Below, piece by piece: positions 5,676 through 24,018 of a DNA stretch of 63,715 nucleotides. This DNA is from a virus (Duplodnaviria > Caudoviricetes). The DNA lies in IMG/VR virus record IMGVR_UViG_3300025030_000014, positions 1-63,715 of that record. One strand, written 5' to 3'. Position numbers and translations under genes: made by a program. Numbering within the stretch: the first letter of the stretch is position 1; each line of letters starts with the position of its first letter. The notes under the pieces are model-generated. The model was not told the origin of the DNA, did not search any database, and saw nothing but the letters and a program-made list of their open reading frames with translations.

Positions 5676-6092
5676 TTAGTTTTGAGTTAGAGTTATGAGT
5701 TCGATGGTAGAGGCAGAGGAGAGGTCAGCGATGACTAGGAGGCCACCAGCAAGAGCTAGGACAATCTCTTCGATGGTAGAAGCTCCGGTGACATCAGCTA
5801 TCACGAGGTCTTTGTCAATAGTCAGGGTTATGTTACCGATGGTGGAAGCTGAGGTTATGCTAGCCACTGTGAGGTTCTTGTCTACGATGTACGTCCACTT
5901 GATATTAGCAGCGGGGATACCGAGGCTACGGAGGCCATCTATAGAGGCTTGGGTAGTAGCATCAGGAGTCGTGCCGCCGTCAGAGGAATCTCCATAGACG
6001 TATAGGAGAAGTTGCGGGCAGACTCCTAGGAGGTCTAGGAGAGTAGGTCGAGCCTCGTTGTTCAGAGCTAGGTTGGTGCATAACTGGCTCAT
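5676..6092 (-). CDS. Hypothetical virion-associated protein with C-terminal repeats
   Basis: Three repeats of approximately L.IA.(I/V/L)(T/S).ASTI..I.L at the C-terminus. Confidence 0.55.
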   Translation of the reverse strand: MSQLCTNLALNNEARPTLLDLLGVCPQLLLYVYGDSSDGGTTPDATTQASIDGLRSLGIPAANIKWTYIVDKNLTVASITSASTIGNITLTIDKDLVIADVTGASTIEEIVLALAGGLLVIADLSSASTIELITLTQN

Positions 6093-6095
6093 AGG

Positions 6096-6437
6096 TTAGT
6101 TACTCCCATAGAGGAACATAGAAGCAGTGGCGTCCCCTCCAGAAGCGTTGGAGATGGAGAAACGGACATAGGGAGCAACTCTTGCGAATCTAAATGCTCC
6201 AGTTGTACCTGCTGCGAGAGTAGCATTCCCAGGGATATTGCTGACAGTCTCTTCAAACACTACAGTGCTACCATCGTTACTCTGCTGAACCTTTACTGTG
6301 ACTACAGCGTCACTCTTACAATTGCCCACAAGGGCTGGCATGTTCCACGGAGTTTCCCCGCGCTCGATGTTCCATGTAGAGGAGTATGTCGCCCCTGTCG
6401 CTATTACTTCGTCTATCGTACTACCTCGTATAACCAT
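6096..6437 (-). CDS. Hypothetical beta-sandwich virion protein (first gene of the late operon)
   Basis: VKVQQSNDGST and APYVRFSISN motifs; AAGGAG RBS. Confidence 0.55.
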   Translation of the reverse strand: MVIRGSTIDEVIATGATYSSTWNIERGETPWNMPALVGNCKSDAVVTVKVQQSNDGSTVVFEETVSNIPGNATLAAGTTGAFRFARVAPYVRFSISNASGGDATASMFLYGSN

Positions 6438-8821: not shown

Positions 8822-9187
8822 TAACTCTTTCACTCTGTACTATGATCTTCTTTCGTAGTACAGATTAAAGGAGTTAGTAAAAATGAGTGAGTGTTTTCGA
8901 AACGCTGCGCGATGCTGATTTGGGGGAGCGTAGGCGAGACTATAGGGGAGAAGAGAAGGGCTGTCAGAATGGCGCACAGAGCTTCTGAGCTATGGTTTCT
9001 AAATCCCTCTTTCTTCTTTCTTGCACGTAGGTCGCTTTCTAGTGGTCATGCCAAGTTTGAGGACAAAAGCATTATAATTTCTCTGCCTATTTTCTGTGCA
9101 AATCTTTGGCACGAATCTTGTCATTGAAGTTAGCTTCTAGAGTTGTATAGCGCTTGAAGATCAATACTATATCTTGTATGTAAGTGA

Positions 9188-9377
9188 GTGAGTGCATAAG
9201 TGAGTGTGATAGTATGAAAGGGGTCTATAGACAGAAAAGAAGAAAGAAAGAGGAGGAAAGAGATATAGATATACTAGAAAAAAAATATTAAAATTAATTA
9301 ATGTATATGTCCTCCTTTCTCTTCTTCTTTCTCTACCAAGGGGGTCTGTATACTATCACACTCACACACGCACTCAC
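9188..9377. repeat. Long imperfect palindrome around an AT-rich core (candidate replication origin)
   Basis: Arms 9188-9215 and 9350-9377 are inverted repeats (24/28). The inner purine-rich and pyrimidine-rich arms flank an almost pure A/T centre (about 9279-9302). Confidence 0.6.
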
Positions 9378-22252: not shown

Positions 22253-22409
22253 GGGACAAACAGATTAGAGCCTTTCGGACAATTTCCCCAAAGCAATCTA
22301 ATCATTTTGCCCACCTTTTAATGCTTTTGCCCCTTGTGTGAGTGAGCGTTTTGCTGTACTATTACTTTACCGGCAAAACATCAACTCTAACCTCAAGGAG
22401 CTACCCCGA

Positions 22410-22814
22410 ATGAAAAGCTTTAAAGACTCTGTTGGCGCACGTGTAGATAACAAAGTAGAAGTCCTCGCTACGTTTGACTTCTATGAAGTGGAGACTACTG
22501 AAGAAGCTATTACCCTCTTTGGTGAGGCTTCTGTCGTAGCCCTCATCAATCGCTCTTACATCCAAGGTCAGCAGAACCTTGCACGTGAAGCTTGTAAAAA
22601 AGACGGCGAAGGCAAGAAGAGTGAAGGGGAGATCCAGACCCTTATTACTAACTACAAGCCTGGGGCTTCTGTCACTCGCTTCAGTATCAAGAACTACCTC
22701 GCTCTCTTCAATGCCGCTGTTGAAGCTGAGAAGTACGAGATTGCTAAAGCCGCTGCTGCTATCTACCGTGATGGCAGTCCTGAGGAAGCTTTCAACTTCC
22801 TGCTGGAGAACTAA
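22410..22814 (+). CDS. Hypothetical protein
   Basis: AAGGAG RBS before ATG 22410; codon usage resembles that of the capsid gene. Confidence 0.7.
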   Translation: MKSFKDSVGARVDNKVEVLATFDFYEVETTEEAITLFGEASVVALINRSYIQGQQNLAREACKKDGEGKKSEGEIQTLITNYKPGASVTRFSIKNYLALFNAAVEAEKYEIAKAAAAIYRDGSPEEAFNFLLEN

Positions 22815-22873
22815 TCCTCTAGGGTTAGTAACCAGCTCGACCTAACTCTCCTCTCGCTTGAGTTACTAACCTA

Positions 22874-22913
22874 GGCGGGTAGTAAGAATCTTTGCCGGTA
22901 CTTACTACCCGCC
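22874..22913 (+). terminator. Terminator-like hairpin
   Basis: 13-bp stem GGCGGGTAGTAAG/CTTACTACCCGCC; weak U-tail. Confidence 0.5.
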
Positions 22914-22988
22914 GAAATTTAGAAATAAAAGTGAGTGAGTGAGTGAATGTTTCAAATGTTCCACCTAGTACAACTCAGGGATACAAGT

Positions 22989-23569
22989 AAATAGTTCTTT
23001 ATCCCTGTAGAAGCACAGCTTGCCCACCTATGAAAATGAGAGAGTGACAACGAGTGCCACTTAGCGATACTGATAGACGCGGTGAAGGGTGCACAAGCTA
23101 ATCTCTCAAGGGAAACCCGTATGGTGAATCTCCTCAAAGTCGGCGAAAGCTTCTAGTAGAGACTGAAATCCCTTCCTACAGCGTAAGCCTAGAGAAGGTC
23201 AGTAGAGTCATTCTGGTCGAAATCCAGCTGCTATGCCCACGCCGAGCGAAGCCCCCTTGTAAAATAGGTGTGAATCCTACATGACAAACAATCCGTTATA
23301 TGCGGAAAAGGGGAACGTGTAGAGACTAGACGGGGAGGAGTTAAGGAAGTAAAAGGCGCACTCAAGAAGAGTGTCAGCCTAGCTGGAATAATGCTACTTC
23401 TAAGCTCAAGGCATAGTCCAGACTACAAACACTATGTGAAGACAGGGATTCGACACAAGAGTATTGAATAGGAATATAAAGTAGGCTAGTCCGAAACAGA
23501 AACCTTAGTAGACTCAACTGTGGCTCGGCGTGTTGGTTAGCTAGTGACAGCGAAAGCTGTAGTGGTAAG
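22989..23569 (+). ncRNA. ORF-less group I intron/ribozyme (IC3-like); 5' boundary inferred
   Basis: P3 CTCCTC(23130)/GGGGAG(23332); P AAAGTCGGCGAA; Q GCCGAGCGAAGC; R GTGTAGAGACTAGACGG (23317); S AAGGCATAGTCC (23408); P9.0 GACTAC/GTGGT; GNRA hairpin ACAGC-GAAA-GCTGT; terminal GTGGTAAG with omega-G at 23569. Confidence 0.85.
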
Positions 23570-23667
23570 AGTGGTAACTCAATGAACGGTGGTTCAATGA
23601 CGGGGTTATACTCCCCTAGGAGTTCACCAGACCAGCACCTCAGTGGTATATCAGGGGTAGCTATTAC

Positions 23668-23743
23668 AAGGGCGAATGTTCCAAGGTTGGCGAACGAGTC
23701 TCCAAAACTTGTTGGCTAGGTTCGATTCCTAGCGTCCTTGCCA
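23668..23743 (+). tRNA. tRNA-Trp (CCA)
   Basis: 76 nt: acceptor AAGGGCG/CGTCCTT, anticodon arm CGAGT-CTCCAAA-ACTTG, T-arm CTAGG-TTCGATT-CCTAG, G73 and encoded CCA. Confidence 0.9.
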
Positions 23744-24018
23744 TTATTCTAAGCACCTTCAACCCACTCTGGTAACACATCTCTCTCCTCCATAGAAGAC
23801 CCTCCGCTTCTGTGCTAACTCTTACCAGAGTGGATTTAAGAGGCTTAGCAGCACATCTTACAATCAAAAGGAGATCTACATGAGCAACATTCTACGCAAG
23901 ATCGAACGTACACAGAAGTGGCTAATCACAGGCTCTAGGAAGTTCACCAAAGCCTACAAGGATGCACGTTACAATGGTAAGCTTAAAGAATACTTCGCTC
24001 AGTATAGGAGTGTATAAC

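Follow-up and report, generated by a model that had tools for sequence, protein, structure and literature searches.

The IC3 introns of bacterial and plastid tRNA genes include the Anabaena and Azoarcus types. These family names, IC3 included, agree with a review (PMC3984707). Among phages, group I introns of the T4, SPO1, Twort and Bastille types are found in protein genes (sections of PMC3984707 and PMC4227781). In general, bacterial and phage group I introns have been placed in tRNA, rRNA and protein genes, the exceptions being a ribozyme in a 5′ untranslated region (5′ UTR) of C. difficile and the IStrons (sections of PMC3984707, PMC4853749, PMC9481103 and PMC4227781), and splicing is what makes them tolerable in such genes (sections of PMC3984707 and PMC4227781). 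The C. difficile ribozyme combines a c-di-GMP-II riboswitch with a group I ribozyme into one allosteric ribozyme (sections of PMC3984707 and PMC9481103), an arrangement stated to be known in that species alone (a section of PMC9481103). Group IIC introns insert beside intrinsic terminators (a section of PMC9481103). Here we describe a group I ribozyme of the IC3 type that lies in no recognisable gene of the phage record IMGVR_UViG_3300025030_000014 (Duplodnaviria; Caudoviricetes). The whole record, 63,715 bp with direct terminal repeats and a completeness rating of 100%, was analysed and is called the window. Counting relatives in other phages, the tRNA-intron lineage has 11 or more ribozymes in phages that are in no gene and have kept their catalytic core by compensatory change.

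22989-23569, plus strand: group I (IC3-type) ribozyme/intron, 581 nt, or 561 nt with the alternative 5′ splice site.

Compared with the IC3 introns of tRNA-Leu(UAA), tRNA-fMet, tRNA-Arg and tRNA-Ile, the window ribozyme has the same R and S elements and layout of P3-P8, GAAA-type loops on P2.1 and P9, the P9.0 pairing, the ...GUGGUAAG end with its terminal omega-G, and likewise no open reading frame (ORF). It differs in not being inserted in a tRNA and in its size (~580 nt vs. ~200 nt), which is due to extensions in P2, P5, P6, P8 and P9. Its guide is GCC or GCUUG where theirs is GAG or GGU, and an element in the 3′ flank is found only in the copies without a host gene. With the phage introns in coding sequences (CDSs; T4 td, nrdB and nrdD, SPO1, Twort, Bastille) it shares residence in a phage and the IC3-like core, which also occurs within CDSs, but it has neither a coding host nor an ORF for a homing endonuclease.

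At gathering thresholds no Rfam family matched anywhere in the window. At E-value thresholds the full-length RF00028 model matched positions 23082-23438 with 30 bits (E 1.9e-5; 17.1 bits in the whole-genome routine), and the alignment displays P3, P4, P6 and P8, with large insertions within P5, P6 and P8. The Infernal comparison with RF00028 that the original prediction had put forward as a check therefore gave a full-length match at this E-value, one that stays below the gathering score of 50. We built a covariance model, R1, from an alignment (A3) of 48 non-redundant compact IC3 introns hosted by phage tRNAs, with the window left out. R1 yielded a single match in the window at 23078-23460 with 65.6 bits and an E-value of 1.3e-17 (44.8 bits with filters off), compared with 150-233 bits for compact introns. 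Both the RF00028 and the R1 score are low because of four large insertions, the core being undamaged. When ten tRNA-hosted introns, the relative L161 and the window were aligned (12 sequences), 71 columns proved invariant, among them the whole of R and ATAGTCCAGAC within S. The R1 match and the invariant columns together make membership of the IC3 tRNA-intron lineage well supported, and we regard the element as a genuine, structurally intact group I ribozyme as judged from its sequence. The resemblance to IC3 introns of tRNA anticodon loops that had been proposed was thus borne out by the R1 score, the invariant columns and the matching 3′ end, and the R and S elements, the GNRA hairpin and the 3′ end were all found at the positions originally given. 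The parts of the core are as follows, with P3, P4, P5 and P6/P6a taken from the cmscan alignment.

23038-43 (GAGAGA) and 23102-07 (UCUCUC), plus strand: P2, with an internal extension.
23110-23118, plus strand: P2.1 hairpin with a GAAA-type loop.
23129-33 and 23334-38, plus strand: P3, enclosing P4, P5 and P6/P6a.
23140-45 and 23240-45, plus strand: P4.
23149-23236, plus strand: P5, with an extension of ~85 nt.
23246-23318, plus strand: P6/P6a, extension present.
23317-23333, plus strand: R element GTGTAGAGACTAGACGG, comprising J6/7, the 5′ strand of P7 (GACUA, 23324-28) and the start of the 3′ strand of P3.
23339-23407, plus strand: P8, with an extension of ~45 nt.
23408-23419, plus strand: S element AAGGCATAGTCC, comprising J8/7 and the 3′ strand of P7 (UAGUC, 23414-18).
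23423-26 (CUAC) and 23562-65 (GUGG), plus strand: P9.0, followed by UAAG ending at omega-G 23569.
23430-23569, plus strand: P9 region with an extension of ~115 nt and the P9 hairpin CAGC-GAAA-GCUG at 23548-59.

All core helices (P3, P4, P6, P7, P8) as well as R and S are present and pairable. The ribozyme ends in ...GTGGTAAG, the final base being the omega-G at G23569, and this terminal omega-G after P9.0 gives it the same end as the 48 tRNA-hosted introns. Between 22846 and 23581 there are no plus-strand ORFs of at least 30 aa and only four on the minus strand, of 31-61 aa, in keeping with the claim that no endonuclease is encoded. A transposase of the IS200/IS605 type, the mark of an IStron, is absent from the ORF-less element. 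In the region, Rfam gave no family other than RF00028 beside the ribozyme, and no riboswitch family, the c-di-GMP-II aptamer included, was found at E ≤10 in 22700-23900.

The pattern of base changes between copies speaks to selection on this structure. We compared the window with its closest relative, L229, over 40 hand-assigned pairs in P2-P8 (78 cells), with P7 written as a pseudoknot. Of the cells, 97.4% were paired, compared with 35-50% when the partners were slid. Three pairs had changed on both sides from the window to L229: A-U to G-C in P2, G-C to C-G in P2.1 and A-U to U-A in P7, the last being A23328-U23414 in the window. The shuffle control for this comparison (49/500) is weak, as it involves two sequences only. 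All 11 host-less copies were also aligned to R1, a model-fitted alignment that leans towards structure. In this alignment 88% of 426 cells were paired (34-43% when slid), 23 of the 43 pairs had changed on both sides and none of 500 shuffles reached any of the observed measures. P3 and P8 were 100% paired with covariation, five of the six P3 pairs having changed on both sides. A further helix, helix 1, reached 97% pairing only because the alignment ends are free, and this artefact was left out of account. The compensatory changes, including the one in P7, indicate continued selection on the core.

Three features of the surroundings are needed to judge whether the ribozyme has a host gene.

22338-22814, plus strand: upstream ORF of 158 aa without a Pfam or PHROG family.
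22874-22913, plus strand: terminator-like hairpin read from the sequence, with a 13-bp stem GGCGGGUAGUAAG/CUUACUACCCGCC, a 14-nt loop and a weak U tract.
23668-23743, plus strand: tRNA-Trp (CCA) found by Aragorn, the sole tRNA of the phage, 98 nt 3′ of the 3′ splice site.

The gap of 850 bp in which the ribozyme had been placed corresponds to the 853 nt that separate the stop of the upstream ORF (22814) from the tRNA; measured from the hairpin, as first described, the distance is ~750 nt. Aragorn, allowing introns of up to 1000 nt at default and 90% thresholds, returned tRNA-Trp only. At 80-85% it reported a Pyl tRNA on the reverse strand and a Phe tRNA borrowing the 3′ half of tRNA-Trp, both of which are implausible. 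When the flanks were ligated in silico at both candidate 5′ splice sites, no tRNA, mitochondrial-type tRNA or transfer-messenger RNA (tmRNA) appeared beyond the separate tRNA-Trp. The long-intron searches and the joined flanks thus rule out a tRNA host. Nor did a scan for ORFs across the junction find a long frame over the true 3′ splice site; its top value, 58 codons, depended on a spurious 3′ site at 23540 combined with a 5′ site within the upstream ORF, and a protein-coding host was rejected. The original view that the flanks resemble neither halves of a tRNA nor a conserved CDS agrees with these searches, which recognised no tRNA half and no long CDS there.

The window is not alone in this respect. 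Word-pattern scans of viral and metagenome contigs, followed by R1, recovered ten further IC3 ribozymes outside tRNAs and CDSs, all from viral and metagenome contigs and all matched by R1 with E-values of 1e-7 to 1e-20. Their settings are given below, where SD denotes a Shine-Dalgarno sequence.

L229: ~70 nt before an ORF with an SD, and after a promoter-like TTGACA-17-TACCAT (our own reading).
L161: 22 nt 5′ of tRNA-Met, after and abutting a terminator-like hairpin.
L258: ~15 nt 5′ of a tRNA.
L208, L231, L254 and L260: 42-59 nt before mutually unrelated ORFs, with an SD seen in L208, L231 and L254.
L234: abutting a terminator-like hairpin; the first ORF found, of 50 aa, lies 17 nt further on and lacks an evident SD.
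L261: the contig ends at an SD and ATG ~43 nt on.
L263, 880-1680, plus strand: an intron of the 600-nt class in the loop of a terminator-like hairpin past an ORF stop.

The enlarged introns related to the window are 430-620 nt long and form two groups. The flanks of L263 form a pairing of ~20 bp (-20.2 kcal/mol; 0/300 shuffles as low) that is followed by a U-rich run, and its loop reads ..AAUCAU^AAUA.., resembling a tRNA-Met anticodon loop. The phage carrying L161 has no similarity to the window by tblastx over 13.8 kb. With at least ten other host-less copies, the window ribozyme is a member of a recurring sub-class rather than a wholly new system. The original prediction of an undescribed system therefore holds for a recurring and apparently undescribed sub-class within a well-known family, but not for a one-off. 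In the open full-text literature we found no description of IC3 introns in phage spacers; subscription journals and supplements lay outside this search, and a prior description is possible. Like the group IIC introns, these would be selfish ribozymes after or in terminator-type hairpins that disrupt no ORF, and 4 of the 11 loci are at such hairpins (the window, L234, L161 and L263), a preference that is only an impression. They differ from group IIC introns in ribozyme class and mobility mechanism, and there is no reverse transcriptase here.

The individual scans differed widely in yield. A 16-mer from P3-P4 hit 40 stretches, of which only L161 is a true relative and the rest are at chance level. 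An S-region pattern hit 58 stretches of metagenome contigs, mostly split tRNAs, with L208 as a related copy. Scanning genome contigs gave 85 stretches against ~70 expected by chance, most of them in coding sequence and with L320 (tRNA-Met) as the sole real intron; many may represent a single conserved motif of a protein gene, read from the opposite strand. R1 matched none of the viral stretches L264-L268, and L354 and L355, from the last viral pattern scan, hold no ribozyme. By blastn, neither the window region nor L231 had a match among 50,697 phage records. As a lead to related loci the upstream-ORF protein gave nothing, and a PAPS-reductase-like ORF led to four loci without ribozyme or tRNA.

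The tRNA-hosted members of the family are far better represented. The exact 17-mer of R occurs in at least 119 IMG/VR stretches, and among the matches listed 88 of 121 occurrences lie inside a split tRNA detected by Aragorn. These hosts are mostly tRNA-Leu(UAA), some mislabelled by Aragorn as 'Tyr ata' or 'Ser aga', the others being Met, Lys, Thr, Arg and Phe. The introns are ~200 nt long and usually lie within same-strand phage tRNA arrays. Enlarged relatives also occur in tRNAs, namely L257 (a 563-nt intron in tRNA-Leu), L259, L255, L252, L251 and L239, and the tRNA location of L257, L255 and L259 means that the enlarged form can be a normal intron. Inside phage CDSs the IC3-like core is found as well, with 15 or more of the 32 compact introns outside tRNAs flanked on both sides by at least 56 open codons. 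Introns of the tRNA type interrupt phage protein genes in L075, L084, L029, L106 and others, and four CDS-located introns have in common a 3′ exon starting AAAGGCGCTGGTACAAGGTGAG. In L166 (1758-2014, minus strand) and L211 (4040-4296, minus strand) a compact IC3 intron splits an ORF that has an SD, inserted behind codon 5 between ATG TAT CTC GAA CTT and AGA AAA, and the frame continues open on the 3′ side. L060, L061, L088, L099, L173, L180 and L227 each have two or three IC3 introns within a few kb.

The 3′ splice site of the window ribozyme was placed between G23569 and A23570 by homology with phage tRNA-Leu introns, which share its R, S, P9, P9.0 and GUGGUAAG end exactly or almost so. Those introns end in ...GGUAGUGAAAACUAUAGUGGUAAG followed by AAAAUC, and the window in ...CAGCGAAAGCUGUAGUGGUAAG followed by AGUGG. 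For the 5′ splice site two pairings come into question, close to a local hairpin.

22984-88 (CAAGU) and 23018-22 (GCUUG), plus strand: candidate P1 (a), 5 bp with the wobble U22988.G23018, 5′ splice site between U22988 and A22989.
23007-10 (GUAG, with the splice site after GU) and 23020-23 (UUGC), plus strand: candidate P1 (b), 4 bp with U23008.G23022, 5′ splice site between U23008 and A23009.
22975-23007, plus strand: 8-bp hairpin CAGGGAUA/UAUCCCUG, present in the minimum free energy (MFE) fold of 22960-23030.

Site (b) was placed by the homology of the intron start AGAAGCACAGCUUGCC with AGUAACACACAGUAAGCC of L161. The sole ground for preferring site (a) is its stronger pairing, so the putative 5′ splice site lies between U22988 and A22989, with that after U23008 as the alternative. 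The start at 22989 given in the original prediction coincides with this preferred site, which is a candidate only. Neither P1 is supported by covariation. The block GCCCACCUAUGAAAAUGAGAGAG corresponds by homology to intron positions ~15-40 of the tRNA-hosted L257 and L259, rather than to an exon boundary. In L257 and L259 the GAG just before the block pairs with the exon end CUU, and from the homology with these two and with L161 the guide triplet of the window would be GCC (23022-24), as in L161 and L261. L161 has the matching GGU directly before its splice site, 15 nt upstream. The hairpin at 22975-23007 (z -1.9; 7/200 shuffles fold equally well) holds the preferred 5′ site in its loop, and the alternative site is one base past its 3′ strand.

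Immediately past the 3′ splice site lies a further element.

23569-23583, plus strand: 3′-flank element with the hairpin GAGU-GGUA-ACUC (23569-80), which includes the omega-G.

The hairpin has a folding energy of -4.1 kcal/mol (z -2.9). Its GGU (23573-75) could pair with the guide triplet GCC, and UAACUCAAU (23575-83) matches the motif UUAACUUAAU found in many host-less copies. Within 8 nt past the omega-G, 10 of the 11 host-less copies and 6 of 7 lineages carry a complement of the guide triplet that ends in U, frequently inside the loop of a small hairpin to which the omega-G belongs. Permutation gave a P of 0.007 and shuffling of the flanks one of 0.026, with G-U pairs allowed and 7 lineages and triplets. 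Triplet and complement switch together in three close pairs: GCC/GGU in the window and GGG/CCU in L229, GCC/GGU in L161 and GGG/CCU in L258, and GCC/GGU in L261 and GGU/ACU in L260. The tRNA-hosted L257 and L255 are without a 3′-flank complement. In L161, L229, L260 and L234 the triplet has a normal complement on the upstream side as well, at the canonical distance. By analogy with the C. difficile ribozyme, the 3′-flank complement could mark an alternative substrate helix; other possibilities are that the intron end is partly repeated here or that a target site has left a remnant.

How the ribozyme might act and why it persists was judged against several readings, which rest on comparison of sequences. 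The chances seem to us about even that it is an active, ORF-less selfish intron residing in non-coding RNA, either a leader ahead of tRNA-Trp in its transcript or RNA between cistrons. The roles offered in the original prediction, namely interruption of an unknown non-coding RNA or reuse in RNA processing, circularisation, trans-splicing or release of the tRNA, are conjectural. The core would fold from P2 to P9 and the guide would pair with the 5′ flank, through CAAGU/GCUUG at U22988.G23018 or at the weaker site U23008. Guanosine would attack at the 5′ site and the 5′ flank would then attack after omega-G23569, joining short non-coding flanks with no gene product altered. The element may have come from a phage tRNA gene, moving to a harmless site by ectopic transposition or recombination, and may persist as a selfish passenger, its own spread keeping the ribozyme active. 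If the copies are mobile introns that target spacers or the loops of hairpins, they are documented cases of group I introns transposing ectopically. Several observations weigh against such an intron. With 30 bits the window does not reach the gathering score of RF00028 (50 bits). The pairing CAAGU/GCUUG is of a kind that chance could supply within ~100 nt (estimate 0.2-0.4), and GGU, the complement of the guide triplet GCC, is absent from the 100 nt upstream. The complement 4-6 nt 3′ of the omega-G is left unexplained by a simple intron. Exon-exon pairing is reportedly required for the Anabaena tRNA intron, to go by the title of a paper. Among 13 located elements, a set to which the window, L234 and L252 do not belong, the energy of the exon-exon duplex was significant in L263 only, and a helix found by hand in the window, GGGAUAC (22978-84) with GUAACUC (23574-80), is a candidate with 6 pairs and one A.A mismatch.

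The 3′-flank complement raises the possibility of a domesticated processing or regulatory ribozyme, which we hold to be unlikely, if worth serious attention. Here the guide would pair with GGU 23573-75, not or not only with the upstream exon, and guanosine attack or guided hydrolysis at the 3′ splice site would set the 5′ end of the tRNA-Trp precursor, or of an mRNA in the relatives. Such a role would fit the complement past the omega-G in 10 of the 11 copies, its joint change with the triplet in the three close pairs and its absence from L257 and L255, although the statistic is only suggestive, and the GGU in the window, L161 and L261 may be a partial repeat of the intron end ...GUGGUA. The host-less copies lie directly 5′ of a tRNA or ORF (L263 inside a terminator-like hairpin), and the core is kept by compensatory change though no gene product needs splicing; the downstream genes are, however, unrelated to each other, no aptamer or other Rfam family adjoins the ribozyme, and the normal upstream complement is retained in four copies. 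The GIR1 lariat-capping ribozyme is derived from group I and lies upstream of the RNA whose 5′ end it makes, the same position relative to the RNA end as proposed here, but omega-G, P9.0 and P7 are normal in the window ribozyme, which is not nested in another intron. The ribozyme of C. difficile is said to use alternative GTP-attack sites, a report attributed to Lee et al. in 2010, and these might have a counterpart in the guide complement past the 3′ splice site of the window. Both are group I ribozymes in non-coding RNA just 5′ of a gene; the window ribozyme differs in its subgroup, in having no detected aptamer and in being followed by a tRNA rather than an ORF. The C. difficile case at least establishes that a natural 5′-UTR group I ribozyme for gene control exists (sections of PMC3984707 and PMC9481103). 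In a stricter form, which we consider distinctly improbable, the 11 copies would not be introns at all but GTP-dependent end-forming modules, in which the guide would pair with GGU in the hairpin and attack after U23575 would give the tRNA-Trp precursor (an mRNA in the relatives) a 5′ G. Should the copies be processing modules, they would be a second, widespread domesticated group I ribozyme.

That the element is instead the decaying relic of an intron in a former phage tRNA gene (e.g., a tRNA-Leu beside tRNA-Trp), its exons lost and its splicing gone, appears improbable to a high degree. It would account for the lack of a convincing P1, for the position beside a tRNA, as in the introns of phage tRNA arrays, and for a stretch at 23064-23082 that resembles a D arm and that MAFFT aligned to tRNA-Leu D arms. 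The low RF00028 score and the 65.6 bits with R1 also suit a relic, but they are due to the four large insertions and not to core damage. All 71 invariant columns are intact in the window, compensatory changes separate it from L229, one of them in P7, and the host-less state recurs in phages as unrelated as that of L161. Least probable, and in our opinion very much so, is a small unrecognised host, either a non-coding RNA of the joined flanks or a micro-ORF. Joining 22988 to 23570 does open a frame of 64 codons from ATG 22947 to a stop at 23717-23719, and an ORF at 23582-23719 shares the frame of this ATG. IC3 introns can adjoin gene starts, as the codon-5 introns of L166 and L211 demonstrate, and many compact non-tRNA introns (the 15 or more of 32 described above) are flanked by open codons. 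However, ATG 22947 has no good SD, unlike the neighbouring genes, the frame passes through tRNA-Trp and its product is of low complexity. L229 has stops in all three frames no more than 6 codons from the 3′ splice site. Shuffled sequences fold as well as the joined flanks do (3′ flank z -0.45), and no tRNA or tmRNA was recognised in the latter. The selfish intron in non-coding RNA is the favoured reading.

In the region around the ribozyme, promoter and terminator scans gave nothing exceeding shuffles, the hairpin at 22874-22913 was not called by a consensus terminator scan, and the MFE fold of the whole region had a z of -0.78. The other ORFs neighbouring the ribozyme have no Pfam or PHROG matches. 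In a single BLASTP comparison the upstream ORF (22338-22814) showed 33% identity (E 1e-8) to L229:3547-3906 (minus strand). These homologous ORFs, to which no function is assigned, lie 5′ of the ribozyme in the window and immediately 3′ of it in L229. The tRNA-Trp gene encodes its CCA; it is below the Rfam gathering score for tRNA, with tRNA-Sec as its best clan match (38.6 bits), and this match suggests an unusual D arm.

Elsewhere the window encodes a family A DNA polymerase, a UvrD-type helicase, a ribonucleotide reductase with a TSCPD domain, a Mu-type portal, an S49 protease and an E-type capsid protein. The DNA runs holding its sequence are labelled as groundwater metagenomes, and no RNA run was listed among those that contain the locus. 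Contigs from three runs were identical to the locus and showed no intron-less form where they cover it, the uncovered parts carrying no weight. In runs X1 and X3 the joint 23333/23407 was also seen with 28 other letters in between, which belongs to a different compact IC3 intron of another genome; the R and S elements on that contig are identical to those of the window, and its P8 is only 28 nt long. L354, a viral contig of 360 kb with an array of 19 tRNAs, has a 20-nt motif in common with the P2 region of the window in a 200-nt spacer between tRNA-Asp and tRNA-Ile (9090-9291, minus strand). Lastly, a viral contig reached via the PAPS-reductase-like protein (L124) carries an Rfam RT-2 RNA (RF03077, 76.9 bits) at 5891-6115 on the plus strand.

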